DNA from: an uncultured Planctomycetia bacterium
GTDB taxonomy: Bacteria > Planctomycetota > Phycisphaerae > FEN-1346 > JAACEH01
NCBI GenBank assembly: GCA_903929765.1
Contig: CAIYVX010000082.1
Span: forward strand, 16,974-80,973
Length of the DNA: 64,000 nt
Direction of reading: 5' to 3'
Shown in pieces: positions 16,643-63,742 of the stretch. Made by a program: the position numbers and the translations under genes. Numbering within the stretch: position 1 is the first letter of the stretch; each line of letters begins with the position of its first letter. Under the pieces are notes generated by a model, which had not been told where the DNA came from, made no database searches, and was given only the letters and a program-made list of their open reading frames with translations.

Positions 16643-16700
16643 CCGGGTGCGCGGCCGAAACCGCTCACCCGGCCTTTTTCTCCAGGCCAACCTCTCCCAA
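16643..16700. terminator. Stem-loop structures in the rplL-rpoB intergenic region (candidate attenuator or processing hairpins)
   Basis: CCGGGTGCGCGGCCGAAACCGCTCACCCGG (16643-16672) is a 7-bp-stem hairpin followed by TTTTT on the plus strand. An adjacent CCTCTC/GAGAGG hairpin lies at about 16682-16700. Many bacteria have a partial terminator at this position. The T-run is on the antisense side, so the orientation and function are uncertain. Confidence 0.25.
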
Positions 16701-16724
16701 GAGAGAGGGGTACAATCGCCGCGA

Positions 16725-32704: not shown

Positions 32705-34029
32705 GACGCCGACTTCCTCGTTTCACCCGCCAGAACTACGCCCGCGCGCTCGGCCGGGTGCAACGTAATCTCCAGCCGCGAAAACTCCCGCAGCAAAAAA
32801 TCCGTCAAATGTTGCGGCAACCGCACCTTCATCACCGTCCGGCTGCCGTCCAGTTCGCACTCCACCCGCCCGGCGTGCCGCGTCACCGCCGACTGCCACG
32901 CCCCGTCCTCGCTCGGACCCTTGATCGTCAGATCCCGCAGCGGACCGCCCAGAATCTCCAGCACCCGTTCCCGCAGCGCCTCGATCCCCCGACCCGTCAC
33001 GGCGCTGGTGAGCACGTTTTCCTGATGGCGGAATTCCAGCACGCGCAACCCGTTCTCGTCCGCCAGCAGATCCGTCTTGTTGAACACCATCAGGACCGGT
33101 TTAGTGCCGCACCCAATTTCCCGCAGCACCACGTTCACCGCCTCAATCTGCCCTTCCACGTCCGCCGCGCTTGAGTCCACGACGTGCAGCAACAAATCCG
33201 CGCTGCGGGCCTCCTCCAGCGTCGCCCGAAACGACGCCACCAGATGGTGCGGCAAGTCGCGCACAAATCCCACCGTGTCGCTCAGCAGCACCCGCAGGTT
33301 GTACGGCAAAGTCCAGGTCCGCGTCCGCGTGTCCAGCGTCGCAAACAGCTTGTCTTCCACGTAAGCATTAGCGTTCGTCAGGGCGTTCAGCAGCGACGAT
33401 TTCCCGGCGTTGGTATACCCCACCAGGCTCACCGCAAACTCTTCCTTGCGCGATTGCACCTGCCGCTCGCGCCGCTCCTGAATCTCCTGAATCCGCCGCT
33501 TCAAATCCACGATGCGCTTCCGCACCAGCCGCCGGTCGGTTTCCAACTGCGTTTCGCCCGGCCCGCGCACCCCGATGCTCCCGCCGCCCTCCAGCCGCGA
33601 CAAATGCGTCCACATCTGCCGCAAGCGCGGATAGGTGTATTCCAATTGCGCCAGTTCGACCTGAAGCTTTGCTTCCGACGTGCGCGCCCGTGTGGCAAAA
33701 ATGTCGAGGATCAATTCGCTGCGGTCCAGCACCTTGACCCCAACCGCCTTTTCGAGGTTCCTGATCTGCCCCGGCGTCAGGTCATTATCAAAAATCACCA
33801 CCGTCGCCTTCCGCGCCACGGCCAGCCGCCCGATCTCCTCGGCCTTGCCTTTGCCGACGTAAAGCCCGGCGTCGGTCATGCGACGGTTCTGCACCACCGT
33901 CCCCACCACCGCTCCGCCCGCCGCCTCCGTCAACCGCGTCAACTCCGCCAGCGGCTCTTCGCCGACATCGGCCTTGCGCTCCGGCAGAATCACCTCCACC
34001 AGAATCGCCCGTTCGCGCGCCACCGTCAT
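32701..34029 (-). CDS. hflX: GTPase HflX
   Basis: It has the HflX N-terminal domain, the G-domain motifs GYTNAGKSSLLNALT, DTVGFV and NKTD, and the expected 442-aa length. Confidence 0.92.
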   Translation of the reverse strand: MTVARERAILVEVILPERKADVGEEPLAELTRLTEAAGGAVVGTVVQNRRMTDAGLYVGKGKAEEIGRLAVARKATVVIFDNDLTPGQIRNLEKAVGVKVLDRSELILDIFATRARTSEAKLQVELAQLEYTYPRLRQMWTHLSRLEGGGSIGVRGPGETQLETDRRLVRKRIVDLKRRIQEIQERRERQVQSRKEEFAVSLVGYTNAGKSSLLNALTNANAYVEDKLFATLDTRTRTWTLPYNLRVLLSDTVGFVRDLPHHLVASFRATLEEARSADLLLHVVDSSAADVEGQIEAVNVVLREIGCGTKPVLMVFNKTDLLADENGLRVLEFRHQENVLTSAVTGRGIEALRERVLEILGGPLRDLTIKGPSEDGAWQSAVTRHAGRVECELDGSRTVMKVRLPQHLTDFLLREFSRLEITLHPAERAGVVLAGETRKSAS

Positions 34030-34208: not shown

Positions 34209-35633
34209 TTATTGTTTCTTCTCTCCGGGTGCCACACTTTGAAGCCCCGGCTTTGCCGGGGCCAAAGTGTGTGCTTTGTCGCGCTCCTCGCTCTCCTCGA
34301 CAACCACCTTCGGCTCCGGGAACAACCACATCACCAGCCGCCCGTGATTCGACACGGCCGCAGCGGGCAATTCTACCGCCGAATTTCCGTCGAACCACCC
34401 GAACAGCACGCCCACGCCCTGCCGCACATATTGCTGCGCGACCCAGCGCATGGCCCGCCGCCTAAACGCATCCGCCGGCGCTTCCGCCGAAAACGCCGCC
34501 GCGTCGATCGAAACCGCCTCGCTCGTCGGCCGGTACACTTCGTCAACCAGCCCCATCCGCCACGCCCGGCCCGCCAGATAGCACCACGCATCCTCCAGCC
34601 GCGCCCCATCACCTAAACGCACTCCGGGCACACCCGATTGCACCCAAAACATTTTACCACCACTCGAAGGGTAGGTGCTTATATCCCACTCGCCAGCCTC
34701 AAAGGCCAGAATCAGACCAGGGGTAGCAGGAATGTTCTCCACCGACCATTCTCCGCCCTCGTGGCGATGAAGTATCACCCCTTCGTACATCACCCGGTCC
34801 GCCTCGGCCGCCACCAGCGGGCGCGGCTGCAACCGTGCCTTAAAGTACAGCGTCGCTGGACCTGCTCGGAGAGCCGTCACCGCCGCCAGATCTTCCACCA
34901 GGGCCTGACCCGTCGAGCCATCACGGGAAACGACCGAAACTGCATCCACCGAATACAGCGGTTTTTCAACCAGGGCCACGGCCCAGACCGCCCCACCCAA
35001 AGCCACAACAACCATCGCCGCGATCTTAATCCTATGCGAAAAAAGTTCTGCCACCAACGCCAGGCAAACCAGCACCGCCGTCACCGCCAGCGCCGGAATC
35101 AGAAAATGCCAAACGTCAGCCAACTGCCACGACCGCCCCTGAAACAACATCGTTGGAATCTGTCCTTTATTCTGATCCACATATCCAATCAAATCCGGCC
35201 GCACATGCGTCCGCGCCGCCAGACGGTCGAGCAAACTACCTGACGAAGCCGCACCCTGCCCTCCCAAGCTCGGCCTCAGTTTCGCAGGAGCATAGCTAAC
35301 CAACAACTTCCCTGCGGCGTCCAGCCCCTCGATGGCCGAAAGGTTCAGCGACCCGTCGAAATACCACGGCTCAAACGTCACGTCGCCCGTTTGCCGCGCC
35401 GGAATCAGCACGTCCAGCCGGTACTCGAAAAGTTGATTGGTTTTAATCCGCACCTGCCGGATGTCGGCCGCCGAAGTGTTCGCCAGTTGCAGCGCCACCG
35501 GCAGCTTCATCCCCGAAATTCCCACATCCGAGCCGGCGAAACGAACGTTCGCCCCCGTCTCAGCCCGCGCCTCCACACCCAACGCCGCCGAAAACATGAA
35601 AACCAACAGAACGACGAGCGGCAACTTTTTCAT
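34209..35633 (-). CDS. Hypothetical membrane/secreted protein
   Basis: The ORF has a signal peptide (MKKLPLVVLLVFMFSAALG) and two internal hydrophobic helices. I recognise no family. Confidence 0.5.
   Translation of the reverse strand: MKKLPLVVLLVFMFSAALGVEARAETGANVRFAGSDVGISGMKLPVALQLANTSAADIRQVRIKTNQLFEYRLDVLIPARQTGDVTFEPWYFDGSLNLSAIEGLDAAGKLLVSYAPAKLRPSLGGQGAASSGSLLDRLAARTHVRPDLIGYVDQNKGQIPTMLFQGRSWQLADVWHFLIPALAVTAVLVCLALVAELFSHRIKIAAMVVVALGGAVWAVALVEKPLYSVDAVSVVSRDGSTGQALVEDLAAVTALRAGPATLYFKARLQPRPLVAAEADRVMYEGVILHRHEGGEWSVENIPATPGLILAFEAGEWDISTYPSSGGKMFWVQSGVPGVRLGDGARLEDAWCYLAGRAWRMGLVDEVYRPTSEAVSIDAAAFSAEAPADAFRRRAMRWVAQQYVRQGVGVLFGWFDGNSAVELPAAAVSNHGRLVMWLFPEPKVVVEESEERDKAHTLAPAKPGLQSVAPGEKKQ
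34227..34273 (+). repeat. REP family H, copy 1
   Basis: GGGTGCCACACTTTGAAGCCCCGGCTTTGCCGGGGCCAAAGTGTGTG is a nested palindrome. It is near-identical to 63566-63611 and related to the repeats flanking RAYT-1. Confidence 0.7.
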
Positions 35634-41261: not shown

Positions 41262-42278
41262 TTAACTTGTCAGCCGTGCGAACTCCGCCGCGTAGTACGT
41301 CAGAATAATGTCCGCCCCGGCCCGACGAATACTCGTCAGCGTCTCACGAATCGCCGCGCCGCGGTCGATCCACCCCGCCCGCGCCGCCGCTTCGATCATC
41401 GCGTACTCACCGCTCACCTGGTACGCCGCCACCGGCACGCCAAACCGCTGTTTCACCCGCCAGATCACGTCCAGATACGCCAGGGCCGGCTTCACCATCA
41501 CGATGTCGGCGCCTTCCTGCAAATCGTTTTCCACCTCACGCAATGCTTCGTTCCCATTGCGATAATCCATCTGGTACCCGCGCCGGTCGCCGAACTGCGG
41601 CGGACTTTCCGCCGCCTCCCGGAACGGCCCGTAAAAACTCGACGCGAACTTCGCCGCATAAGACATGAGCGGCACGTGGCTCAGGGACGCCGCATCCAGC
41701 GCCTGGCGAATCGCCCCCACCCGCCCGTCCATCATGTCGCTCGGCGCCACCACGTCCGCCCCCGCACGGGCGTGGGCCAGCGCCATCGCCGCCAGGAGCG
41801 GCAACGTCTGATCATTATCTATGACGCGCCGCCCGCCGCGCTCCACCGGCACGCCGCAATGGCCGTGATCGGTATATTCGCACAGGCAGACGTCCGTAAT
41901 CACCGCCAGGTCCGGCAGCGCCTTCTTGAGCGCCCGCACCGCCCGCGGAATCAGCCCGTCCGGATCGACCGCGCTCGTCGCCCCGGCGTCCTTGCGGTCC
42001 GGTATCCCGAACAGAATCACCGCCGGCACGCCCGCCGCCGCCACCTCGCCCGCCCGCTCCACCAGCGTGTCCACCGACCACTGGAACTGCCCCGGCATCG
42101 ACGAAATCGCCCGCCGCTCCCCCCGCCCTTCCCGCACAAACAGCGGCTGCACCAAATCCTTCGCCTCCAGCGTCGTCTCCGCCACCATCTCGCGCAGCAC
42201 TGCCGTGTCCCGCAGCCGCCGCAGACGTGTTATCGGAAAAGCCACGATCCATTCCTCCGCGTGCCGCTTCTTTTTCAC
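41262..42278 (-). CDS. hemB: Porphobilinogen synthase (delta-aminolevulinate dehydratase)
   Basis: PITRLRRLR, DVCLCEYTDHGHCG (Zn site), the active-site lysines and YQVSGEYAM match HemB. The track's start is a GTG lying inside the family-B repeat, so the exact start is uncertain. Confidence 0.93.
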   Translation of the reverse strand: MKKKRHAEEWIVAFPITRLRRLRDTAVLREMVAETTLEAKDLVQPLFVREGRGERRAISSMPGQFQWSVDTLVERAGEVAAAGVPAVILFGIPDRKDAGATSAVDPDGLIPRAVRALKKALPDLAVITDVCLCEYTDHGHCGVPVERGGRRVIDNDQTLPLLAAMALAHARAGADVVAPSDMMDGRVGAIRQALDAASLSHVPLMSYAAKFASSFYGPFREAAESPPQFGDRRGYQMDYRNGNEALREVENDLQEGADIVMVKPALAYLDVIWRVKQRFGVPVAAYQVSGEYAMIEAAARAGWIDRGAAIRETLTSIRRAGADIILTYYAAEFARLTS

Positions 42279-42325
42279 CCCTCTCCCTTGAGGGGAGAGG
42301 GTAGGGTGAGGGTGTTGCTGTTTCT
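42268..42325 (+). repeat. Palindromic element family B, copy 1
   Basis: CTTCTTTTTCACCCCTCTCCCTTGAGGGGAGAGGGTAGGGTGAGGGTG has a core inverted repeat CCCTCTCCC/GGGAGAGGG. It overlaps the hemB 5' end. Confidence 0.7.
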
Positions 42326-44866: not shown

Positions 44867-46174
44867 TCATCGGCTCCGCTCCTCGTCCAGAACTCGTATG
44901 CACACCGGCCGATTATGCACCACGTCCAGCCCGGCAAATTCCTTCAGCGCCACCCGCATGTCCCGTTCCACCGCCAGGTGCGTCATAATCATGAGCGGCA
45001 CGCTCGTCGCCTCCACCGGCTCGTGCTGAAGCACGCTGGCGATGGAAATGTGGTGCGCGCCCAGCACCCCCGTGATCCGCGACAGCACGCCCGGCTGATC
45101 CACCACGTCGAACCGCAGATAATACCGCGACGGCACGTCGTCAATCGACTGCACCGTCCCCTTTCCCGCGATGCTGAAAATGTCCCGCGCCGCAAACGTG
45201 ATCTCCGCCCGGCCCAGGGCCACGTCCACCAGGTCCGCCACCACCGCCGAAGCCGTCGGCCGCTGCCCCGCCCCTGCCCCATAATATAAGGTGTCGCCCG
45301 TCTCGTCGCCGCGCACCATCACCGCGTTGAACGGCCCGTCCACGTGGGCCAGCGGATTGCTGCGCGGCACAAAGGCCGGATGCACCCGCAGGCTCACCCC
45401 GCCGTCCGCCCCGCGCCGCCCGATGGCCAGCAGCTTGATTGTGTAATTCAACTCGGCGGCATAACGCACGTCCGCCGCCTCGATCTTCTGAATCCCTTCG
45501 CAGTGCACGTCCTCGAACCGCGCCGGCACGTCGAACGCCAGCCGCGCCAACACCGTCAGCTTGTGGGCGCTGTCCCCGCCCGACACGTCCAGCGTCGGAT
45601 CCGCCTCCGCATAGCCCTTGGCCTGCGCCTCCGCCAGGGCCTTCTTATAGCTCGTCCCCTGCTTCGTCATGCTCGTCAAAATGTAATTCGACGTCCCGTT
45701 CAGTATCCCCGTCAGCCCGGTGATCCGGTTGGCCACCAGCCCGTCCCGCACCGCCAGAATGAGCGGCAACCCGCCGGCCACCGCCGCCTCAAAACAAATC
45801 GCCTTGCCCAACTCCCGCGCCAACTTCACGAGCGGCTCTCCCCGCTCGGCCAGCAACGCCTTGTTCGCCGTGACCACGTCTTTGCCCGCCCGCAGACAGC
45901 GCTCGACCACGTCGTAAGCCGTCGTCGTCCCGCCGACCAACTCGCACACCACCGTCACTTCCGGGTCGGCCAGCACGCGATCCAGATCGTTGGTCAACAG
46001 TTCCGCCGGAACCTTCACCCCGCGATCCCGCGCCAGCTCTGTGTCGCAAACATATTTCAACTTTAGCCGCACCCCGGCCCGCGCCGCCACGGTCTCGCCG
46101 GACTCCAACAGAATCCGCGCCACCCCGCTGCCCACGGTCCCGAACCCGACTATCGCCACAGTTACCGTCTTCAT
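44867..46174 (-). CDS. hom: Homoserine dehydrogenase
   Basis: MKTVTVAIVGFGTVGSGVARIL, the NAD-binding and catalytic domains, and a C-terminal ACT domain are present. Confidence 0.93.
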   Translation of the reverse strand: MKTVTVAIVGFGTVGSGVARILLESGETVAARAGVRLKLKYVCDTELARDRGVKVPAELLTNDLDRVLADPEVTVVCELVGGTTTAYDVVERCLRAGKDVVTANKALLAERGEPLVKLARELGKAICFEAAVAGGLPLILAVRDGLVANRITGLTGILNGTSNYILTSMTKQGTSYKKALAEAQAKGYAEADPTLDVSGGDSAHKLTVLARLAFDVPARFEDVHCEGIQKIEAADVRYAAELNYTIKLLAIGRRGADGGVSLRVHPAFVPRSNPLAHVDGPFNAVMVRGDETGDTLYYGAGAGQRPTASAVVADLVDVALGRAEITFAARDIFSIAGKGTVQSIDDVPSRYYLRFDVVDQPGVLSRITGVLGAHHISIASVLQHEPVEATSVPLMIMTHLAVERDMRVALKEFAGLDVVHNRPVCIRVLDEERSR

Positions 46175-46232
46175 GGTTTCCCCGGACGCGACTCGCACGT
46201 CGTCTCTTTACCCCTCTCCCCATAAGGGAGGA

Positions 46233-46271
46233 CGGGTGGCATGGCGGCGTCGTTTGCCGCCATGTTTCGCC
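46233..46271. repeat. Palindromic element family D, copy 1
   Basis: GACGGGTGGCATGGCGGCGTCGTTTGCCGCCATGTTTCGCC has the stem CATGGCGGC/GCCGCCATG. Confidence 0.65.
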
Positions 46272-46295
46272 AGTGCCCGTTCTTCGGGTGCCGCC

Positions 46296-46352
46296 GTTTC
46301 TTCACCCCTCTCCCTCGGGAGAGGGTGGCCCGAAGGGCCGGGTGAGGGGTTA
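46296..46352 (+). repeat. Palindromic element family B, copy 2
   Basis: GTTTCTTCACCCCTCTCCCTCGGGAGAGGGTGGCCCGAAGGGCCGGGTGAGGGGTTAG is near-identical to the copy inside valS (56208-56272). Confidence 0.7.
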
Positions 46353-46489
46353 GCTCACCACCTCAAAAACTTCACCAGAACGCCATCATACGCGAGGACA
46401 TGCCCTGCCCGCGCCCTAAGCCCGACCAAAGTATTCCGAATCGCCCCATTTTTCAAGTAAAAACGCTGTGCGTACAGCCTTTGTTGTTC

Positions 46490-46514
46490 GTAGGGACAGG
46501 GCTCTGCCCTGTCC
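46490..46514 (+). repeat. GTAG-type hairpin element family G, copy 1
   Basis: GTAGGGACAGGGCTCTGCCCTGTCC is identical to 63476-63500 and begins with the GTAG tetranucleotide typical of classical REPs. Confidence 0.65.
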
Positions 46515-46543
46515 AGCCGTTTCTTTTGCCGTTGCCGCTTCAC

Positions 46544-46670: not shown

Positions 46671-46985
46671 CCCCCGCGCCATCGCCCTCCACTCCGCTCT
46701 CCCCCAGCCGCGAAGCGGCGAAAGTTTTTAGCCGGGCGGCGTCAGCCCCCGGTCCCCGCCGCAAACACATTCTTCTTCTTTTTCTTCTTATTTCTCTTCT
46801 CAGCCGCAGCGCGGCGTCTGATAATAACCACGCGGCGCAAGCCCGTGGTTCCCAACGCGCCGACCCGGCTTTTTTCTTCTTCTTTTTCTTTTCCCAGCCC
46901 CCTCCCCCCGCGCCATCCCCCTCCCCTCCGCTCACCCCCAGCCGCGAAGCGGCGAAAGTTATTAGCCGGGTGGCATAAGCCAGCC
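46671..46985 (+). repeat. Two ~77-nt direct repeats separated by polypyrimidine tracts
   Basis: 46671-46747 is CCCCCGCGCCATCGCCCTCCACTCCGCTCTCCCCCAGCCGCGAAGCGGCGAAAGTTTTTAGCCGGGCGGC. 46903-46985 is the same sequence with 8 substitutions. Between them lie TTCTTCTTCTTTTTCTT tracts and a GC hairpin, with no credible CDS. Confidence 0.6.
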
Positions 46986-48785: not shown

Positions 48786-48839
48786 CACCCTCACCCTACC
48801 CTCTCCCCTCAAGGGAGAGGGGTGAAGAAGAAAAAGAAG
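48786..48839 (-). repeat. Palindromic element family B, copy 3
   Basis: CACCCTCACCCTACCCTCTCCCCTCAAGGGAGAGGGGTGAAGAAGAAAAAGAAG is the reverse complement of copy 1. It supplies the GTG and lysine codons of the next gene's annotated start. Confidence 0.7.
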
Positions 48840-53647: not shown

Positions 53648-54133
53648 ATGACCAAAACTTCTTTCACCATCCGCCCCGCCACTCCCGCCGACGCCGACGC
53701 CGTCGTCGCCATGTGGCAGATCATGGTGGACCAGCACCAGGCTTACGATCGCCTGCGCTGGCGCATGAAGCCCAACGCCCCCGCCCTTTGGCGCAAGTTC
53801 TTTCTGGAAGTCCTGGCCAAAAAAGATTCCTTCGCCCTGGTCGCCGTCAACGCCACTGGTCAACCCATTGGCTATCTCGTCGCCAACATCGCCGCTCCGC
53901 CGCCGATCGTGGCCATCCGCTCCCGCGGCGATATCGGCGATCTCTTTGTCCGAAAAGAATATCGCCGCCACGGTCTCGGCCGCCGACTAATGAACCACGC
54001 CGTCAAAATCATGAAGAGCCGCGGCGCCGAATATATCAGCCTCTACGTTGCCGCCTCGAACCGCAGCGCCGTCCGTTTCTACAAAAACCTCGGCCTGAAA
54101 CCGCTCGTGCTGCAGATGTGCAATAAGTTATAA
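53648..54133 (+). CDS. GNAT-family N-acetyltransferase
   Basis: The 161-aa product carries the acetyl-CoA-binding motif RRHGLGRRLM and the GNAT beta-strand pattern. Confidence 0.85.
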   Translation: MTKTSFTIRPATPADADAVVAMWQIMVDQHQAYDRLRWRMKPNAPALWRKFFLEVLAKKDSFALVAVNATGQPIGYLVANIAAPPPIVAIRSRGDIGDLFVRKEYRRHGLGRRLMNHAVKIMKSRGAEYISLYVAASNRSAVRFYKNLGLKPLVLQMCNKL

Positions 54134-54139
54134 TGAAAC

Positions 54140-54186
54140 GTGCCACGGCGGGTCTTGTCCCGCCGTGCGAATGCGGGCCGACGCTC
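54140..54186. repeat. Hairpin element family C, copy 1 (immediately upstream of valS)
   Basis: GTGCCACGGCGGGTCTTGTCCCGCCGTGCGAATGCGGGCCGACGC has the stem CACGGCGGG/CCCGCCGTG. Its partner copy is 66 nt downstream of the valS stop. Confidence 0.65.
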
Positions 54187-54207
54187 GCTAAAAGGATAAT
54201 TGTCCCG

Positions 54208-57200
54208 ATGACCCAACCCGAAACCAACTCCACCAACCCCACCGACCTTCCCACCCAATACGACCCCAAGCTCTTCGAAAAGGAAGTTTACGCCTTCTGG
54301 GAATCTCATAACTATTTCCACGCCGACCCCGCGCGCGGCGGAAAACCCTACGCCATAGCCATCCCGCCCCCCAACGTCACTGCCGCCCTCCACCTCGGCC
54401 ACGCCCTCAACAACACCCTTCAGGACATCCTCGTCCGCTGGCGCCGCCAGCAGGGCTACAACACCCTCTGGATGCCCGGCACCGACCACGCCGGCATCGC
54501 CACCCAGGCCGTCATCGAAAAACGTCTCCTCGCCAACGAAGGCCTGCGCCGCAAAGACCTCGACCCCGACCCCGCCGTCGCCCGCACCAAGTTCGTCGCC
54601 CGCGTTCAGGCCTGGAAAGACGAGTACGAAGCCCGCATCCTCGGCCAGCTCAAAGCCATGGGCTGCTCCTGCGACTGGGACCGCACCCGCTTCACCATGG
54701 ACGAAACCTGCGCCGCCGCCGTCCGCGAAGCCTTTTTCCGCCTCTTCAAAGACGGCCTCATCTATCGCGGCAAACGCCTCGTCAACTGGGACCCCGCCAC
54801 CCAGACCGTCCTCGCCGACGACGAAGTCGAACACGAAACCGTCCAGGGAAATTTCTATTACCTCCGCTACCCGCTGGCTGAAGCCGTTGCTTTACCCAGT
54901 GACACGGGCATCTTGCCCGTGAGTCCCACGGGCGTCCCGCCCGTGGCCGCCGTTTCTTCTTCACCCAGTGGCACGGGCGTCCCGCCCGTGAGTGCCACGG
55001 GCATCTTGCCCGTGGAAGACTTGCCTGTAATCAAGCGTCAGGGTGCCAACCTGCCTCACTGGACTCAATCCGGCGCAACCTATGCCATCACGTTCCGGTT
55101 GGCCGATTCTCTCCCCGCCCAAGTCATTGAATCATGGAAGCATCACCGGGAAGAAATCGAACAAAGAGCCAACTCCCAAGGCCGCAAGATGACCTGGCAG
55201 GAGCGTAAGGAACTCCACCAACTGTACGAATCCCGCATCGACAGCATGCTGAACACCGGTCTTGGGGCGTGTTATCTCAACAATCCGGAAGTAGCCGAAA
55301 TCGTCCAGGACGCACTGAAACATTTCCACGGCGAGCGATACGAACTGATCGCCTGGTCACTCATGCCCAACCACATCCATGCCGTTCTCCGTCCTCTGGG
55401 AGAACACCATCTCGCGGACATCATCCACTCCTGGAAGTCCTTCACGGCTAAGCAAGCCAACAAAATTCTTGGACGAGAAGGACAGTTCTGGATGGAGGAA
55501 TACTACGACCACCTGATTCGCGACGAAGAGGATTTTGGCCATGCGGTAATGTACGCGATCAGCCATCCGGAGCGCGCCGGCCTGGCCGACTGGCCGTGGG
55601 TCGGACTGCAAAAAACGGCACAGGGGCAAGATGCCCCTGCGACTCACGGGCAAGATGCCCGTGCCACTGTTATAACACACATCACCGTCGCCACCACCCG
55701 ACCCGAAACCATGCTCGGCGACACCGCCGTCGCCATGAACCCCCGCGACCCCCGCGCCGCCGCTCTCGTCGGCCAGATGGTTCGCCTCCCCATCGTCGGC
55801 CGCCTCATCCCCATCATCGCCGACGAACACGTCGTCCTCCCCAACCCCGAAGGCGACGAAAAAGCCCGCTTCTCCACCGGCTTCCTCAAAGTCACACCCG
55901 CCCACGACCCCAACGACTGGGACATCGGCCAGCGCCACAAACTCCCGGCCATCAACGTCATGGCCCCCGACGGCTCAATCTCCGACAAGCACGGCTGGAC
56001 CGACTGGGACGCCGTCAAAAATCCTGATGTCGAAAAATTCATTGGCCTCGACCGCTTCATAGCCCGAAAGAAGATCGTCGACTGGTTCGGCGAAAACAAT
56101 CTTCTCGAAGAAGTCCGCCCCTACGCCCACGAAGTCGGCCACTCCTACCGCAGCCATGTCCCCATCGAACCCTACCTCTCCGACCAGTGGTTCATCGCCG
56201 TGAAAAAGCCGTTTCTTCTTCACCCCTCTCCCTCGGGAGAGGGTGGCCCTTCAGGGCCGGGTGAGGGGTTGAGGCCCTTGCCCGTTCCGACCGCGCCCGA
56301 ACTGATCCCCGGCACCGACGTGCCAGTTAATTCTTTAGCCGGCTTGGCCATCAAGCCGCTCCTCGACGGCAAACTCAAATTCGTCCCCGAGCGCTACGCC
56401 CGCAACTACCAGAACTGGCTCGAAAACCTTCGCGACTGGCCCATCTCCCGCCAACTCTGGTGGGGACACCGAATTCCAGTGTGGCAAGGAATCACTGAAT
56501 TTGGATCGAAGGTGTTTGAGGGCAAGGACACAGCAAAATCTCCATTCGGAATAGCCGGCGTAGAAGGAATACACATACAGCACAGAGATGAGGCTGGAAA
56601 ACTGGGACTGTATGCCTCGGTACCGCCCGGCCATCCAGACAAGGAAAAGAAACTGGAGGAGGCTGGCCTAACCCGCGACCCCGACGTCCTCGACACCTGG
56701 TTCTCTTCCGGCCTCTGGCCCATCTCAACCCTCGGTTGGCCGGAACAAACCGACGCGCTGAAATTCTATTACCCCACCTCCGTCCTCTGCACCGCCCGCG
56801 AAATCATCACCCTCTGGGTCAGCCGCATGGTCATGTTCGGCGAATATTTCCAGCACGACCTCCCCTTCCGCACCGTCTACATCCACGCCATGATTCAGGA
56901 CGGCGAAGGCCGCAAAATGTCCAAGAGCCTCGGCAACGGCATCGACCCCCTCGACATCATCGACTCTCACGGGGCCGACGCCATGCGCTTCACCATCGCC
57001 GCCATGACCACCGAAACTCAGGACGTCCGCATGCCGGTCGAAACCCTCACCCTCCGCGACGGCCGCACCGCCAACTCCAGCCCCAAGTTCGACCTCGGCC
57101 GCAACTTCTGCAACAAGCTCTGGAACGCCTCCCGCTTCGCCTTCATGAACCTCGCCGAACTTTCCCCCGAGCCGTTCGACCGCGCAAAAATGCTCCTCGA

Positions 57201-58053
57201 AGACCGCTGGATTCTCTCCCGCCTCACCACCACCGTCGAAGCCGCCACACAGGCCCTCGAAAAGTTCCAGTTCCACGACGCCACCGACGTGATCTACTCT
57301 TTCTTCTGGAACGATTTCTGCGACTGGTACCTCGAAATCACCAAGCCGCGCATGCGCGACGCCGCCACCAGAGCCGTCCCCCAACGCATCCTCGCCTACG
57401 CCCTCGACCGTCTCCTGCGGCTCCTCCACCCCTTCGTCCCGCACATTACCGAGCACCTCTGGACCCACTTCGCCCGCCTCGTCCCCGACCGCTCGCTCGA
57501 CTCTGCGGCCCCCGCCCCACCCGCCGAAGCCTGCATCATCGCCCTTTGGCCCGAGCCGGTCGCCGCTTTTTACGCGCCCCAGGCCGAAACCGATTTCGCC
57601 CTCGTCCAGGCCGTCATCCGCGCCATCCGCAACATCCGTTCGCGCATGAACATCGCCCCGCGCGTCCCGCTCCGCGCCGTCATCCGCTCGAGCGCCGCCG
57701 CCACCGCCCGCCTCTCCGCCGCCGCCGACACCATCCGCCACCTCGCCGCCCTCGAATCTCTTGAGGCCGACCCTGCCGCCGAAAAGCCCAAAGCCTCCGC
57801 CGCCGAAATCGTCGAAGGCCTGGAAGTCTTCGTCCCCCTCGCCGGCGTCATCGACCTCGCCACCGAGCGCGACCGCCTCGCCAAACTCTCGGCCGAGAAG
57901 GATAAGGCCCTCGACAGCGTCCGCAAAAAACTCTCGAACGAAAACTTCGTCGCCCGCGCCAAGCCCGAAATCGTCGCCAGCGAACGCGACCGCGCCGCCA
58001 AGCTCGAATCCGAACTCGCCGCCCTCACAGCCAACATGAAAGATTTGGAATAG
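54208..58053 (+). CDS. valS: Valyl-tRNA synthetase carrying two in-frame repeat-derived insertions (one is a complete REP-RAYT-REP unit)
   Basis: The HIGH (HLGH), KMSKS, TTRPETMLGD (CP1), WCISRQ-like (WPISRQLWWGHRIP) and anticodon-binding regions are present, as is the C-terminal coiled coil. The ORF is uninterrupted for 1282 codons from the chosen ATG, versus about 880-1000 aa typical. Confidence 0.93.
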   Translation: MTQPETNSTNPTDLPTQYDPKLFEKEVYAFWESHNYFHADPARGGKPYAIAIPPPNVTAALHLGHALNNTLQDILVRWRRQQGYNTLWMPGTDHAGIATQAVIEKRLLANEGLRRKDLDPDPAVARTKFVARVQAWKDEYEARILGQLKAMGCSCDWDRTRFTMDETCAAAVREAFFRLFKDGLIYRGKRLVNWDPATQTVLADDEVEHETVQGNFYYLRYPLAEAVALPSDTGILPVSPTGVPPVAAVSSSPSGTGVPPVSATGILPVEDLPVIKRQGANLPHWTQSGATYAITFRLADSLPAQVIESWKHHREEIEQRANSQGRKMTWQERKELHQLYESRIDSMLNTGLGACYLNNPEVAEIVQDALKHFHGERYELIAWSLMPNHIHAVLRPLGEHHLADIIHSWKSFTAKQANKILGREGQFWMEEYYDHLIRDEEDFGHAVMYAISHPERAGLADWPWVGLQKTAQGQDAPATHGQDARATVITHITVATTRPETMLGDTAVAMNPRDPRAAALVGQMVRLPIVGRLIPIIADEHVVLPNPEGDEKARFSTGFLKVTPAHDPNDWDIGQRHKLPAINVMAPDGSISDKHGWTDWDAVKNPDVEKFIGLDRFIARKKIVDWFGENNLLEEVRPYAHEVGHSYRSHVPIEPYLSDQWFIAVKKPFLLHPSPSGEGGPSGPGEGLRPLPVPTAPELIPGTDVPVNSLAGLAIKPLLDGKLKFVPERYARNYQNWLENLRDWPISRQLWWGHRIPVWQGITEFGSKVFEGKDTAKSPFGIAGVEGIHIQHRDEAGKLGLYASVPPGHPDKEKKLEEAGLTRDPDVLDTWFSSGLWPISTLGWPEQTDALKFYYPTSVLCTAREIITLWVSRMVMFGEYFQHDLPFRTVYIHAMIQDGEGRKMSKSLGNGIDPLDIIDSHGADAMRFTIAAMTTETQDVRMPVETLTLRDGRTANSSPKFDLGRNFCNKLWNASRFAFMNLAELSPEPFDRAKMLLEDRWILSRLTTTVEAATQALEKFQFHDATDVIYSFFWNDFCDWYLEITKPRMRDAATRAVPQRILAYALDRLLRLLHPFVPHITEHLWTHFARLVPDRSLDSAAPAPPAEACIIALWPEPVAAFYAPQAETDFALVQAVIRAIRNIRSRMNIAPRVPLRAVIRSSAAATARLSAAADTIRHLAALESLEADPAAEKPKASAAEIVEGLEVFVPLAGVIDLATERDRLAKLSAEKDKALDSVRKKLSNENFVARAKPEIVASERDRAAKLESELAALTANMKDLE
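54897..55669 (+). mobile_element. REP-RAYT-REP composite embedded in frame in valS
   Basis: Two tandem family-A REP doublets (54897-54946, 54966-55015) are followed by a RAYT-like HUH domain (~55012-55605: LPHWTQSGATYAITFRL...AWSLMPNHIHAVL...FWMEEYYDHLIRDEEDFGHAVMYAISHPERAGLADWPWVG) and one inverted family-A REP (55616-55669). The region has no stop codon and no ATG; it is contiguous with the flanking ValRS sequence. Confidence 0.8.
56208..56272 (+). repeat. Palindromic element family B, copy 4, in frame inside valS
   Basis: CCGTTTCTTCTTCACCCCTCTCCCTCGGGAGAGGGTGGCCCTTCAGGGCCGGGTGAGGGGTTGAGG is translated as PFLLHPSPSGEGGPSGPGEGLR. It sits within a ~40-aa insertion relative to the E. coli ValRS region DQWFV...FVPKQY. 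Confidence 0.75.
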
Positions 58054-58072
58054 GTGGACTCACATCCGTCGA

Positions 58073-58112
58073 ACGGGTGGCATGGCGGCCGTCGTTTGCC
58101 GCCATGTTTCGC
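58073..58112. repeat. Palindromic element family D, copy 2
   Basis: GAACGGGTGGCATGGCGGCCGTCGTTTGCCGCCATGTTTCGCC starts 20 nt after the valS stop. Confidence 0.65.
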
Positions 58113-58118
58113 CCCGGG

Positions 58119-58160
58119 TGTGCCACGGCGGGCTTGCCCCGCCGTGCGAATGCCCGCCAA
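58119..58160. repeat. Hairpin element family C, copy 2 (immediately downstream of valS)
   Basis: GTGTGCCACGGCGGGCTTGCCCCGCCGTGCGAATGCCCGCCA matches copy 1 at 54140-54186. Confidence 0.65.
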
Positions 58161-58215
58161 CCCCGGTTGCTCTAAAACGTGTTTTGATTCTTCTTTTTCT
58201 CTTTCCGCAACTCCC

Positions 58216-59607
58216 CTACCTCGGCCCCTCCCCAAAATCCAACCCGAACTTCTTCATCTTCTTATATAGCGTCGTCCGATTGATCTCCAGCACGTCGGCC
58301 GTCACCTGCCGGTTCCAGTTGTTCGCCCGCAGCGTCCGCTCGATGATCTCCTTTTCCGGCACCTCCAGCGCGTCCTTCAGCGGCCGGATCCGCCCGTCCG
58401 TCCCCGCCAGCCCCGCCTTCGGGCTTTCCCCGTGCTTGATAATCGTCGGCGGCAAATCCCCCGCCTCCACCTGCCGCCCCCGCGCCAGCACCGTCACCCG
58501 CTCCATCGCGTTTTCCAGTTCCCGCACATTCCCCGGCCAATCATACGTCTGCATTAGTTGCATCGCCTCGTTCGAGAACCCCAGGATCTTCTTCCCGTTC
58601 CGCTCACAGAACATCTTCAGAAAATGGTCTGCCAGGAGCGGTATGTCGCTCAGCCGCTCCCGCAGCGACGACAACTCAATCGCCACCACGTTGATCCGGT
58701 AATACAAATCCTGCCGGAACTTCCCATCATGCACATCCTGCAACAGGTCGCGATTCGTCGCCAGAATCACCCGCACATCGCTCTTGATGGTCTCCGATCC
58801 GCCCACCCGCTCGAACTCGAACGTCTGTAGCACGCGCAGCAACTTCACCTGAAACGCCGGGCTGGCGGTGGAAATTTCGTCCAGAAAAATCGTCCCCGTG
58901 TTGGCGATCTCAAACTTGCCTTGCCGGTCCGCCACCGCCCCGGTGAACGATCCCTTCGTATGCCCGAACAGTTCCGACTCCAGCAGCGTCTCCGGCAGAG
59001 CCCCGCAGGCCACTTCTATGAAGGGCCGGGCGTTGCGGCTGGACCGCTGGTGAATCGTCCGCGCGATCATGCTCTTGCCCGTCCCGCTCTCGCCGGTGAT
59101 CAGCACCGTCGCCCGCGAATCCGCCACCGCCTCGATCAGGTCGAAAACTCTCAGCATCTTATAATCGTTCCCGATCACGTTGTCGAGCGAGTAACGCATG
59201 TTCAACTGTTGCCGCAGGTTCCGGTTTTCCCCCACCAGGGCCTGCTGTTTCATCGCCCGCTCGATGACCAGTTTGATCTCGTCGTCGATAATCGGCTTGG
59301 TCAGATAATCATATGCCCCCAGCTTGATCGCATCGACCGCCGACTCAATCGTCCCGTACCCCGTAATCATAATCACCGCCGCGTCCGCGTGCCGGTTCTT
59401 GCAGACCTTCAGCAACTCGAACCCGTCCACTCCCGGCATGTTCACGTCGGTAATGACCACGTTGAACGGTTTGGTGTCGAGCCAACTGATCGCCGACTCG
59501 AACTTCTCCGCCGTCTCGACCTCGTACCCTTCCAGCCGCAAAAACTCGCACAGGCTGGTCAGAATAATCCGGTCGTCATCGACCACCAGAATGCTTCCCT
59601 TAGCCAC
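58216..59607 (-). CDS. Sigma-54-dependent response regulator (NtrC/Fis family)
   Basis: It has a receiver domain (DDD...K), an AAA+ sigma54-interaction domain (GESGTGKS, GAFTGA-like GSFTGA, ESELFGH) and a C-terminal Fis HTH. Confidence 0.93.
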   Translation of the reverse strand: MAKGSILVVDDDRIILTSLCEFLRLEGYEVETAEKFESAISWLDTKPFNVVITDVNMPGVDGFELLKVCKNRHADAAVIMITGYGTIESAVDAIKLGAYDYLTKPIIDDEIKLVIERAMKQQALVGENRNLRQQLNMRYSLDNVIGNDYKMLRVFDLIEAVADSRATVLITGESGTGKSMIARTIHQRSSRNARPFIEVACGALPETLLESELFGHTKGSFTGAVADRQGKFEIANTGTIFLDEISTASPAFQVKLLRVLQTFEFERVGGSETIKSDVRVILATNRDLLQDVHDGKFRQDLYYRINVVAIELSSLRERLSDIPLLADHFLKMFCERNGKKILGFSNEAMQLMQTYDWPGNVRELENAMERVTVLARGRQVEAGDLPPTIIKHGESPKAGLAGTDGRIRPLKDALEVPEKEIIERTLRANNWNRQVTADVLEINRTTLYKKMKKFGLDFGEGPR

Positions 59608-59628
59608 GTTTACATCCTTTCCTTGTTA

Positions 59629-59677
59629 CAGTGGCACGGGCGTCTCGCCCGTGAGTCGCAGGGGCATCTTGCCCCTG
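59629..59677 (+). repeat. REP family A, copy 7
   Basis: CAGTGGCACGGGCGTCTCGCCCGTGAGTCGCAGGGGCATCTTGCCCCTG lies between the histidine-kinase and response-regulator genes. Confidence 0.7.
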
Positions 59678-59697
59678 CTTACTGTTTTTGTTTCTTC

Positions 59698-59735
59698 AAT
59701 TTTTAATTTTTCATTTTTAACTTTTAATTTCCCTT
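59698..59735. repeat. AT-rich element J, copy 2
   Basis: CAATTTTTAATTTTTCATTTTTAACTTTTAATTTCCC overlaps the histidine-kinase stop codon. Confidence 0.5.
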
Positions 59736-61475
59736 TTCCTCACGGCTCGCCCACCGCGTCGCAATCCGCACCACGAACTCCGCCCCGCCCGTCGCCCGGT
59801 TCCGCGCCAGCAGCGTCCCGCCCTGCTTTTCCACCAGTTCCTTGCAAATCGCCAGGCCCAGCCCCGTCCCCTGCCCCGCCTCTTTGGTCGAGAAGAACGG
59901 CTCGAAAATATGGTCGAGCGCCTCGTGCGACAACCCCGGCCCGTCGTCCGCCACGGAGATATCCACCGCCCCGTCGATGCACACCGCCCGCACCTGCACC
60001 CGCCCGCCCTGGGGCTGCGCCTCGATCGCGTTCTTGATCAGGTTCGTAAACACCTGATACAGTGAACTTGACTCCATCTCCGGCACGTTGTCCGCAATTT
60101 CCAACTCCAGCGCCACGCCCCGTTCCTGGGCCTTGCCCGACAGCGACGTGATCGCGTCCTCCATCGCCGCCCGCAGCGTCCCGTCGCTCGAAGCCGCCAC
60201 CGTCGAACGCGAAAATTCCAGCAACTCGCTGATGATCCGCACCATCCGCATCAGCCCGCCGCGCGCCGACTCGACGTACCCCACCGCCCGCTGATCCGGC
60301 GTATCCTTCAGCACGCGCACCGCCAGCCCCAGATACCGCAGAATCCCGTCCAGCGGATTATTCAACTCATGTGCAACTTTTGCCGCCAGCTTCCCCACCG
60401 CCGCCAGCCGCTCGCTCGCCGCCAGCCGGTTCTCCATCGACACGTCGCGCGTCACGTCCTCGATCGTCATAATCCCGCCCACCGCCGCCTCGCGCTTGCC
60501 CACCAGCGGCGAAGCCGACAGCCGCAGCACCAGCGGCGCCGCGCCCGTTTTCCCCTGCCCCTGGCTCACCGCGTCAAACGTGCAGACCTGACCCAGCCGC
60601 ACCACGTCACGGAAGATCGCCTGGTAATCCCCGTACCGCGCCGCTATGTCCGTCCGCGCCAAACCATGCAGCACGTTCCGGTCGTCCGGAAAAATCCGTT
60701 CCGCCTCCCGGTTGCGGAAGACGACCGCGAACGACCGGTCGAAGACCACCACCCCCATCGGTATCGATTCAAATATGTTTTCGTTGAACGTCTTGACCTG
60801 GACCAGCTCCGCCGAGGCCCGCGCAAGCTCCTTCGTCGCCTCCACAATCCGCGACCGCAGATCGTAGCTGAAACATTTGAACTGCGTCGCGCTGTCCACC
60901 AGCGCCGCCGAAAAATTCGCCACCACCCCGAGCGCCGCCTGGTCCGCCGTCCCCAGCTTGCGACCGGGAATCGTCGAGGCCACCACCAGAATCCCCACCA
61001 GACGCTCCCCGGTCATCATCGGCACGGCCGCCAGCGCCGTCAGGTGCCCGAACGACAGCCCGAGGCTTTCCTCCGGATCCCCGAGGCACAGCCCCTCGTT
61101 CCGCTCGATCAGAACTTCCGTCACCGGCCGGCTCGCGAAAAAGTCCAGCGTCTGCAGCATGTGCCCCTCGCCCAACGTCGCCCCGGGCTTCAGGGCCTGC
61201 TCCGCATCGTCCCACAACGCCACCGCGCCGCACTGGCAATCCACGAGCGCCGCCGAACGCTGCAGCACCGTCTGCATGAGTTCCGCAGGCTCCGCCACCG
61301 CCGTCAGCTCCGCCCCCAGAGCCGCCAGCGCCGCCAGAATCCGGCCGTCAGGTTGCCCCCGCGAAACATCGGACGTTGTCTTTTTTCTCGCCAAAGCCAA
61401 ACCCCTCGTCAATACGGCTCTTCCGATTCGAAGTTCCTCAAAGATCCTCCGGCCCGCCATGTTGCCATTCCACAT
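59724..61475 (-). CDS. Cytoplasmic GAF-PAS sensor histidine kinase
   Basis: There are no TM segments. It has GAF and PAS-like regions, the HisKA H-box (AHELNNPL) and HATPase_c N/G1/G2 boxes (NLIKNAIEA, DDGPG, GTGLGL). It is adjacent to the NtrC-type regulator. Confidence 0.9.
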   Translation of the reverse strand: MWNGNMAGRRIFEELRIGRAVLTRGLALARKKTTSDVSRGQPDGRILAALAALGAELTAVAEPAELMQTVLQRSAALVDCQCGAVALWDDAEQALKPGATLGEGHMLQTLDFFASRPVTEVLIERNEGLCLGDPEESLGLSFGHLTALAAVPMMTGERLVGILVVASTIPGRKLGTADQAALGVVANFSAALVDSATQFKCFSYDLRSRIVEATKELARASAELVQVKTFNENIFESIPMGVVVFDRSFAVVFRNREAERIFPDDRNVLHGLARTDIAARYGDYQAIFRDVVRLGQVCTFDAVSQGQGKTGAAPLVLRLSASPLVGKREAAVGGIMTIEDVTRDVSMENRLAASERLAAVGKLAAKVAHELNNPLDGILRYLGLAVRVLKDTPDQRAVGYVESARGGLMRMVRIISELLEFSRSTVAASSDGTLRAAMEDAITSLSGKAQERGVALELEIADNVPEMESSSLYQVFTNLIKNAIEAQPQGGRVQVRAVCIDGAVDISVADDGPGLSHEALDHIFEPFFSTKEAGQGTGLGLAICKELVEKQGGTLLARNRATGGAEFVVRIATRWASREEKGN

Positions 61476-63460: not shown

Positions 63461-63475
63461 TGCCGTTGTTTTTTT

Positions 63476-63500
63476 GTAGGGACAGGGCTCTGCCCTGTCC
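63476..63500 (+). repeat. GTAG-type hairpin element family G, copy 2
   Basis: GTAGGGACAGGGCTCTGCCCTGTCC is followed by a related GTAGGGGCAGAGTTCATCTCTGCCCTGC at 63523-63550. Confidence 0.65.
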
Positions 63501-63565
63501 GGCAGTTGCTGTTGTTTCTTTCGTAGGGGCAGAGTTCATCTCTGCCCTGCTGTTTCTTTTTTTCC

Positions 63566-63611
63566 GGGTGCCACACTTTGAAGCCCCGGCCCTGCCGGGG
63601 CCAAAGTGTGT
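63566..63611 (+). repeat. REP family H, copy 4
   Basis: GGGTGCCACACTTTGAAGCCCCGGCCCTGCCGGGGCCAAAGTGTGT is near-identical to copy 1 at 34227-34273. Confidence 0.7.
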
Positions 63612-63690
63612 TCTTTGCTTCGCTCTACAATCCCCAATCGCCGCAACCCATCCTACTTCCGCCCGCCTCATTTTCTGCTTCTTTCGCTTT

Positions 63691-63742
63691 TACATTTTTA
63701 ATTTTTCATTTTTAATTTTTCATTTTGCATTTTTCATCTCCC
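63691..63742. repeat. AT-rich element J, copy 3
   Basis: TACATTTTTAATTTTTCATTTTTAATTTTTCATTTTGCATTTTTCATCTCCC encodes the last codons and stop of trpC. Confidence 0.5.

Follow-up and report, generated by a model that had tools for sequence, protein, structure and literature searches.

We analysed a 64,000-nucleotide stretch of DNA (hereafter the window) from an uncultured Planctomycetia bacterium (contig CAIYVX010000082.1), in which a short structured repeat, here called family B, lies inside valS, the gene for valyl-tRNA synthetase (ValRS). The features of this locus, including the open reading frame (ORF) that hosts the repeat, are as follows.

54133 to 58053, plus strand: valS ORF (1306 aa), host of the insertion, identified by Pfam and orthologue matches
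56209 to 56270, plus strand: family-B copy in valS, a CT-rich leader and a long-variant BoxC/TM element, codons 693 to 713, peptide PFLLHPSPSGEGGPSGPGEGL, identical in two further assemblies (L001 and L002)
56209 to 56222, plus strand: leader CCGTTTCTTCTTCA
56224 to 56232, plus strand: block 1 CCCTCTCCC, pyrimidine arm of hairpin 1, equal to the first TMECO block
56235 to 56243, plus strand: block 2 GGGAGAGGG, purine arm of hairpin 1
56245 to 56258, plus strand: extra hairpin GGCCC-TTCA-GGGCC within "loop 2" of the motif (loop GAA in the intergenic copy)
56259 to 56267, plus strand: block 3 GGGTGAGGG, third-strand block of the triplex motif
56271 to 56303, plus strand: RPLPVPTAPE stretch between the element and the conserved LIPGTD, replacing the xHLAxKFGxG of relatives
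46294 to 46351, plus strand: near-identical long-variant intergenic copy, upstream of hom (homoserine dehydrogenase, 44867 to 46198, minus strand)

The valS product matches Pfam tRNA-synt_1 (E = 2.8e-121), Anticodon_1, and Val_tRNA-synt_C, and its translation contains both the HIGH (as HLGH) and the KMSKS motifs. A search of a 5.8-billion-protein database returned, as best orthologues, ValRS proteins from Phycisphaerae/Sedimentisphaerales metagenome-assembled genomes that are 69–75% identical. This identity extends across the 481 residues tested, with every invariant column retained. The upstream synteny is unlike that of relatives—i.e. a GNAT gene stands in place of their rho.

The segment of interest is shared with intergenic DNA of the same window. 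Specifically, the window contains exactly two copies of a 29-nt core, CACCCCTCTCCCTCGGGAGAGGGTGGCCC (46303–46331 and 56221–56249), and a 17-nt 3' core, GGGCCGGGTGAGGGGTT, is exact at 46335–46351 and 56254–56270; in 100 dinucleotide-preserving shuffles no match is expected for the former, and zero are expected for the latter. The whole shared block reads CCGTTTCTTC, TTC (valS only), ACCCCTCTCCCTCGGGAGAGGGTGGCCC, TTCA or GAA, and GGGCCGGGTGAGGGGTT, and spans 62 nt in valS (56209–56270) and 58 nt in the intergenic copy (46294–46351). The two copies differ only in the TTC indel of the leader and in the loop of the second hairpin, where valS has TTCA and the intergenic copy GAA. Codon 693 begins at position 56209, so the block lies inside the ORF, as first proposed, and is translated as PFLLHPSPSGEGGPSGPGEG(L).

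Two independent ENA assemblies of the same organism, reached via a neighbouring response-regulator protein, cover the site: L001 (ERZ27313102) spans window positions 55552–60981 and L002 (ERZ18626762) 54532–59880. Both are gapless across the site at 99.9% identity, with zero differences inside the element. Because both assemblies reproduce the site, the element is no assembly artefact. Over about 5.4 kb, the three assemblies of the valS region are 4–6 substitutions apart. Further contigs of the same organism, reached via the upstream GNAT gene, stop at a REP-containing region of valS, short of the family-B site.

The family was identified by searching the literature for the block sequences. 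Judged by its blocks, the family-B element is the BoxC/PIT/"TM" intrastrand-triplex repeat in a long variant: CCCTCTCCC, GGGAGAGGG, and GGGTGAGGG agree exactly with Table 1 of Holder et al. (2015, PMC4666352), where E. coli copies read CCCTCTCCCTGTGGGAGAGGGCCGGGGTGAGGGC and similar. According to that study, which cites earlier work by Bachellier and by Hoyne/Maher, the motif occurs in >260 genomes, with 23 copies in E. coli K-12 that are "always located intergenically" and no link to transposons; the isolated strand forms a stable triplex in vitro and none in vivo, and the motif is tied to local genomic instability (PMC4666352). The search definition used there (ITxF) allows loops of 1–6 nt between blocks, which leaves the long variant outside (PMC4666352). 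Loop 1 of the valS copy is 2–4 nt, and its loop 2 is 15 nt (TGGCCCTTCAGGGCC), exceeds that range, and forms a hairpin of its own. We nonetheless treat the valS copy as a variant of the family, because many phyla have long variants whose stems covary.

The family, its long variant included, is widespread. A degenerate three-block pattern found at least 120 loci in a species-representative genome collection, and the matches listed include Chloroflexota, Planctomycetota, Pseudomonas, Xanthomonas, Acidobacteriota, cyanobacteria, Omnitrophota, and others. Among 91 long variants in the fetched loci, the loop-2 insert has a perfect stem of at least 4 bp in 67% of cases vs 22% after shuffling; the stems comprise 58 distinct sequences, and their loops are mainly C-GNA-G. 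Therefore, the extra hairpin is maintained while its sequence changes. Single-strand folding (ViennaRNA, hairpins only) is somewhat better than in shuffles for the valS element (z = −2.2) and modest across copies (z from −1.5 to −3.3), so folding energy alone is insufficient to identify the element. No family-B copy matches Rfam at gathering thresholds, and a permissive Rfam scan of 56100–56400 returned chance-level hits only (best 15 bits, best E 0.85). A paper on G-quadruplex repeats (PMC4692102) was rejected as a source for the family, as it concerns heptamer simple sequence repeats with a different motif. The initial annotation had called the two copies a near-identical palindrome and had not recognised the family: the near-identity stands, with two small indels, whereas the palindrome gives way to three blocks plus an extra hairpin, and the intergenic copy starts at 46294 rather than 46296.

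An alignment of ValRS orthologues (n = 118, both anchors DQW[YF] ... F.P.RY present) indicates that the segment is not ancestral. The PSPSGEGGPSGPGEG peptide is found in 0 of the 118. The spacer between the anchors is exactly 43 residues in 73 of them, of the type IAVKKPI-EHLAEKFGEG-LIEGTDVPVNSLAGLALKPLLDGRLR, compared with 62 in the window valS. Relative to the Thermus thermophilus enzyme (1GAX), about 43 residues are extra, placed between residues 364 and 366; of these only 19–20 are organism-specific, while the rest (LIxGTDVPVNSLAGLA...) is conserved lineage sequence. The insertion of about 40 residues first proposed is thus right in length against T. thermophilus and about twice too long as repeat-derived sequence. 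Its placement near the anticodon-binding core must be corrected, as the site lies upstream of KMSKS, where the CP2 helix adjoins the final strand of the CP1/editing domain. The protein database holds no closer uninserted relative (top match 69% identical). The intergenic copies and valS have nothing in common beyond the element itself. The direction repeat to gene follows from the near-identical intergenic copy and from the cross-phylum intergenic distribution of the motif. The family thus has intergenic copies alongside a stop-free, in-frame ORF copy that orthologues lack, the pattern of in-frame palindromic inserts, and on the alignments the conclusion holds that the valS segment is a repeat-family copy inserted in frame.

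The same loop has received other sequences in related genes. About 35 of the 118 orthologues carry other, longer insertions at this CP2 loop, most of which read like translated repeats. These include KWHGLPAREDTAKMAVPP in three proteins, peptides with ...GKMPAT, GKMPVT, or GKMPVP, variants (a dozen) of ..NCGLRIADW.. and PNCRLPIADCRL, inserts of the Phycisphaerales-type group (HGRDAHAT, HGQDARAT, GVPPVSP), and the TM-like GDGRGEG...PSLEGRGSEGG. The nature of the inserts was confirmed on fetched DNA for five orthologues: a REP doublet, GTGGCATGGGCTTCCAGCCCGTGAAGACACGGCCAAGATGGCCGTGCCAC, in L004; a CGCGGGCAAGATGCCCGTG hairpin (REP) in L005; AATTG-type heptamer repeats, AATTGTAAATTG... and AATTGCGGATTGCGGATTGCGG, in L127 and L128; and an inverted pair of degenerate TM motifs, in frame, in L129. 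At least three unrelated repeat families (REP, TM, and AATTG heptamers) have entered the same ValRS stretch in different lineages, which argues for loop tolerance more than for a single targeting mechanism. This comparison strongly supports the CP2 loop as a permissive hot spot, one of the two possibilities that the initial annotation had offered. In a 1200-aa AlphaFold model (mean predicted local distance difference test score, pLDDT, of 68; poor near the catalytic core), the insert (model residues 587–607) is coil at a pLDDT of about 41 between strand 579–583 and helix 629–638, and the editing domain reaches 85–97; a model of the 481-aa fragment is worse (mean pLDDT 57.6). Taken with the diversity of orthologues, this low-confidence model suggests that the loop tolerates changes in length.

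The window valS also carries a second in-frame insertion, independent of family B and likewise repeat-derived, as had been claimed from the start.

54885 to 55669, plus strand: two family-A REP doublets (CACGGGCATCTTGCCCGTG-type hairpins), a RAYT-like Y1-transposase domain, and an inverted REP doublet, in frame in valS

This REP-RAYT-REP unit is translated as about 260 extra residues where the editing domain starts. Pfam places Y1_Tnp at valS residues 387–458 (E = 6e-5), with the motif LMPNHIHAVLRP in the translation, and L002 reproduces the insertion. The RAYT-like domain is flanked by family-A hairpins and not by family B, which has no doublet partner here, unlike the repeats of a REP/REPIN-RAYT system. 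Two contigs of the same organism (L212 and L213) break near valS residue 220, directly before the REP region. Gene calls in relatives often split valS into two ORFs, or leave a gap in it, at the equivalent position (L127, 1887–4834; L128, 6352–8001). The residue-220 site may be another repeat hot spot or merely a point where assemblers and gene callers fail.

The reading frame of the family-B copy depends on small details. Two of three frames of the block are open in the forward orientation and one of three in reverse, and the open frames encode Pro/Ser/Gly/Glu/Arg-rich peptides. Compared with its intergenic twin, the valS copy has 3 additional nt, which are frame-neutral, and 1 additional nt in the hairpin loop. 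As read from the sequence, a 3-nt loop (the family's usual GNA) would give ...GGT TGA directly after the element; the 4-nt loop TTCA is therefore required for the present open frame.

The leader of the valS copy, GCCGTTTCTTCTTCACCC, is identical to that of the family-A REP copy at 54946–54966 in the same gene, and a shorter form precedes the intergenic copy. The leader sequence GCCGTTTCTTC(TTC)ACCC thus occurs at 54946–54966, 56207–56225, and 46293–46307, before family-A REP and family-B copies alike. The repeats of this genome appear to travel with, or to insert beside, a common CT-rich module, and since several copies have the leader in common, the copied unit extends beyond the triplex motif. 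At its start, GCCG (possibly GCCGTTT) coincides with the conserved Lys-Pro codons. The RPLPVPTAPE stretch that follows the element may be native loop, frameshifted native loop, or co-inserted DNA. A frameshifted xHLAxKFGxG is unproven: the alternative frame EALARSDRAR matches E-x-L-A, the real frame likewise has L there, and the remainder is mismatched. GCCGTT and GCCCGTT were considered as target-site duplications and rejected as weak.

We consider it probable, at roughly 0.78, that the valS segment is a BoxC/PIT/TM long variant with its leader, copied from intergenic DNA into the CP1/CP2 loop and kept there as a tolerated passenger. The matching sequences demonstrate that a long-variant copy with its CT-rich leader was copied from intergenic DNA into the loop between the CP1/editing domain, at its end, and the CP2 helix. 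The insert would have persisted because two of three frames are stop-free in the valS orientation and yield a Pro/Ser/Gly/Glu-rich, probably disordered peptide, and because the loop puts up with changes in length. It would be no adaptation but a passenger, either selfish or neutral, that purifying selection has screened for an intact frame free of stops. It may have arrived in trans, through an enzyme that moves TM elements, for which a DUF559 Vsr-like endonuclease is a candidate, or by microhomology-mediated template switching at the GCCG(TTT) common to the Lys-Pro codons and the leader. The passive mechanism—i.e. a copy that landed in a length-tolerant loop and survived as it was stop-free and in frame—is the best supported.

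Several points weigh against this reading. Both structure models have low overall quality (mean pLDDT 58 and 68), and no target-site duplication is evident at the valS site. The exact junctions are approximate, since uninserted orthologues reach only 69–75% identity and the native xHLAxKFGxG loop is unrecognisable here. A search of all six-frame ORFs with phmmer found no DUF559-like ORF in the 64-kb window. The window valS is putatively functional, judged indirectly by its intact ORF and conserved motifs, and a second valS may lie elsewhere in the genome. Finally, that one gene among the roughly 55 of the window has two insertions hints at something beyond passive tolerance.

That hint leads to the other possibility offered at the outset, active targeting, in which the DNA of the CP2 loop is a preferred target or an earlier repeat attracts later ones. 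In different lineages, at least 5–6 repeat-derived insertions that are independent of each other begin no more than a few codons past KKPI; the sole REP-A-like hairpin in 7–22 kb of L004 and L005 is the one inside valS; the window valS has two separate insertion sites while the other genes, about 55, have none; and target and leader share the GCCG(TTT) microhomology. We nevertheless regard targeting as unlikely: the three or more unrelated families would need different machineries with one target, TM copies also lie in frame at linkers and loops of unrelated genes, and no common target motif or target-site duplication is seen. The presence of two insertions, one a whole RAYT-like domain (a 260-aa transposase module), together with the GNAT gene where relatives have rho, could also mean that the window valS is redundant and degenerating under relaxed selection while a clean second valS does the work. 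A decaying gene is hard to reconcile with a 3.9-kb ORF free of stops and frameshifts that contains HIGH and KMSKS, with 69–75% identity over 481 residues and all invariant columns kept, or with three assemblies only 4–6 substitutions apart in about 5.4 kb. Moreover, orthologues with repeat insertions in the loop are common, each being the sole valS on its own contig, and we consider decay improbable.

The inserted DNA or mRNA structure (hairpin, triplex, or G-rich tract), or the Pro/Gly-rich peptide, might instead have come to serve valS expression or ValRS function, in a regulatory or a structural capacity. Three assemblies retain the copy, which folds somewhat better than shuffles (z −2.2), and TM oligonucleotides form stable triplexes in vitro (PMC4666352). 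Such exaptation is very improbable given that none of the 118 orthologues retains the element, that PIT/TM elements displayed neither promoter nor terminator activity nor an in vivo triplex footprint (PMC4666352), that Rfam offers no match (best 15 bits, best E 0.85), and that the peptide is low in complexity and modelled as disordered. The reverse derivation, with the peptide as old ValRS sequence and the intergenic copies as valS fragments, was named at the outset as the result that would overturn the insertion. It has the shared sequence in its favour and nothing more, and it is refuted by the absence of the peptide from 118 orthologues, by the status of the motif as a cross-phylum intergenic repeat with its own conserved architecture, and by intergenic copies that resemble valS only in the element.

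In-frame copies of the family are not confined to ValRS. We scanned for stop-free frames that span the motif with at least 80 residues on each side, using the 140 TM matches listed in at least 120 genome loci. Pfam confirms a solo TM in an Eco57I-type methylase just before GNPPW (L109), an in-frame TM in a PMT_2 membrane glycosyltransferase (L082), and a TM between the two domains of a phage terminase large subunit (L032). Among the matches listed, in-frame coding copies make up about 5% of a small sample; they are a recurrent feature of the family. TM-spanning ORFs in L007, L012, L017, L030, L091, and others were judged spurious by composition (high GC) and were left uncounted.

TM motifs are also physically associated with DUF559 genes. 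For example, a TM-DUF559-inverted TM unit lies in frame in a MetRS gene, between the anticodon-binding and tRNA_bind domains (L015, 1777–4515, minus strand), and a TM-DUF559-TM unit lies in frame in PriA, just before Walker A (L108, 1774–4404), with DUF559 (PF04480) matches at E = 1e-32 and 4e-37. A second metG carries such a unit in frame at the same site as L015 (L197, 1790–4735; the two contigs are related and betaproteobacterial), and so does hrpA (L159, 3032–6694). The latter gene also has a possible second, solo, degenerate TM-derived peptide, …AMDNLPSPSGGGNEGGGGFQLTS…. These in-frame units are stop-free and lack intein motifs, so the endonuclease domain would stay in the protein. Stand-alone TM-DUF559-TM units occur in L035 and L122, with long-variant TMs in L122. 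In the E. coli K-12 region NC_000913.3, 1351204–1351760, a degenerate TM lies over the stop codon of the DUF559 gene ycjD, and TMECO #9 is 168 nt downstream.

The association was quantified in 80 metagenome loci (L130–L209) picked by DUF559 similarity alone. A TM lies within 200 nt upstream of DUF559 in 29 of the 80, nearly always on the plus strand and ending 15–65 nt before the match, and within 200 nt downstream in 39, mostly on the minus strand and starting 5–30 nt after it. Both sides carry a TM in 20 loci and at least one side in 48, while the remaining 342 kb hold only 17 TMs, an approximately 60-fold enrichment near the gene. The literature that we searched on DUF559, ycjD, and BoxC makes no mention of this association and treats YcjD-like proteins solely as putative Vsr-related PD-(D/E)XK nucleases. 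The E. coli pstB-pstA spacer exists as a filled allele (L210, K-12, 3908200–3908830) and an empty one (L211, strain KOr021), the short allele being present in about half of 5,426 complete E. coli genomes. The difference is 92 nt, comprising TMECO #19 and a leader, CTCGGTCGGTC, that Pseudomonas copies also have, and a 9/10-nt direct repeat, T[T/C]AACCGTGT, flanks this unit.

Given these data, we tentatively suggest, at somewhat less than even odds, that TM motifs are terminal inverted repeats or homing targets of a widespread selfish unit built around a DUF559 Vsr-like PD-(D/E)XK nuclease, that solo and paired copies, the valS copy included, are non-autonomous derivatives resembling miniature inverted-repeat transposable elements, and that the units settle in frame without splicing. 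Under this reading, TM ends translate as stop-free Pro/Ser/Gly-rich linkers, so that solo ends and whole units could settle in frame, as in valS, metG, priA, and hrpA. The valS copy is solo and not part of a TM-DUF559 unit; DUF559 is a candidate mobiliser for it. If true, mobile DNA would have an intein-free route for adding loops and domains to housekeeping proteins, with the CP2 loop as a natural landing pad. The link itself offers a testable candidate for the missing enzyme of the repeat and a candidate function for the large DUF559 family, including E. coli YcjD.

To our knowledge, BoxC/PIT/TM has been regarded since the 1990s as strictly intergenic, and we know of no function or mobilising enzyme for it. 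The present case is that of a known family in a setting not reported before, namely as a long variant that is translated within an essential gene. It shares with TMECO the identical three-block core, a multi-copy interspersed distribution, and the lack of a transposase beside most copies. It differs in that the valS copy is coding and translated, while TMECO copies are "always located intergenically" (PMC4666352), in a loop 2 that is a 15-nt hairpin instead of 1–6 nt, and in its lineage-specific CT-rich leader. REP/REPIN-RAYT systems resemble the present case as short GC-rich hairpin repeats dispersed intergenically, and the same valS holds a REP-RAYT-REP unit in frame; family B, by contrast, combines a hairpin with a third-strand block, forms no doublet, does not adjoin a RAYT, and has TM flanking DUF559 instead. 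Inteins and homing-endonuclease insertions are likewise selfish endonuclease units in frame in essential genes, as are TM-DUF559-TM in metG, priA, and hrpA and REP-RAYT-REP in valS, but here splicing motifs are missing, the insert presumably stays in the mature protein, and the valS TM is a solo end without an ORF.

We know of selfish DNA in protein-coding genes mainly from Rickettsia. Rickettsia palindromic elements (RPE) lie in frame in many protein-coding genes (reviewed in PMC10969869) and, like family B, form a structured family with intergenic and genic copies, the latter in frame, stop-free, and adding a peptide to housekeeping proteins. Genic RPE copies are regarded as compatible with the protein fold (PMC10969869), and the valS insert may be alike in this respect. 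By contrast, the sequences are unrelated and from another phylum, an RPE is about 150 bp vs about 60 nt for the valS element, and in ValRS several unrelated repeat families strike one loop. These findings extend in-gene selfish DNA from Rickettsia to a cross-phylum repeat family, and indicate that BoxC/PIT/TM can be carried and translated in an essential aminoacyl-tRNA synthetase. They further show that, within a bacterial class, unrelated repeat families have entered a single ValRS loop time and again, with the same happening in other genes and phyla, and they warn annotators that such low-complexity inserts are not assembly errors.

Family B has six members in the 64-kb window. The five other than the valS copy are all intergenic, as checked against the Pfam gene context; besides the copy upstream of hom, they are as follows.

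42274 to 42313, plus strand: canonical short TM copy (CCCCTCTCCC TTGAG GGGAGAGGG TA GGGTGAGGG) in the hemB-ask spacer
48787 to 48826, minus strand: canonical short TM copy upstream of an OMPdecase/RraA-like gene
16659 to 16710, minus strand: diverged long-variant copy upstream of rpoB
46207 to 46236, plus strand: degenerate TM-like remnant (ACCCCTCTCCCCATAAGGGAGGACGGGTGG)

The two canonical short copies (42274–42313 and 48787–48826) are without the second hairpin and have loops of 1–6 nt. The intergenic DNA of the source organism is a mosaic of several structured repeat families. An Rfam match to Acido-Lenti-1 RNA (46706–46752, minus strand; 41.8 bits vs a gathering threshold of 37) sits in a repeat-packed 1-kb intergenic region with a paired repeat at 46671–46747 and 46905–46981; the 77 nt around the match have a second copy, 91% identical, 234 nt away. 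T-rich arrays with a 7-nt period (AATTTTT / CATTTTG) occur at 32644–32705, 59686–59733, and 63667–63742, in the same periodic style as the AATTG-type heptamers of the ValRS loop in L127 and L128 and with another sequence. Repeat family D15, a long hairpin (CCACACTTTGAAGCCCCGG...CCGGGGCCAAAGTGTG), is present at 34219–34286 and 63558–63625, and family D8, consisting of GGGACAGGGCTCTGCCCTGTCC hairpins, at 46484–46528 and 63470–63561.

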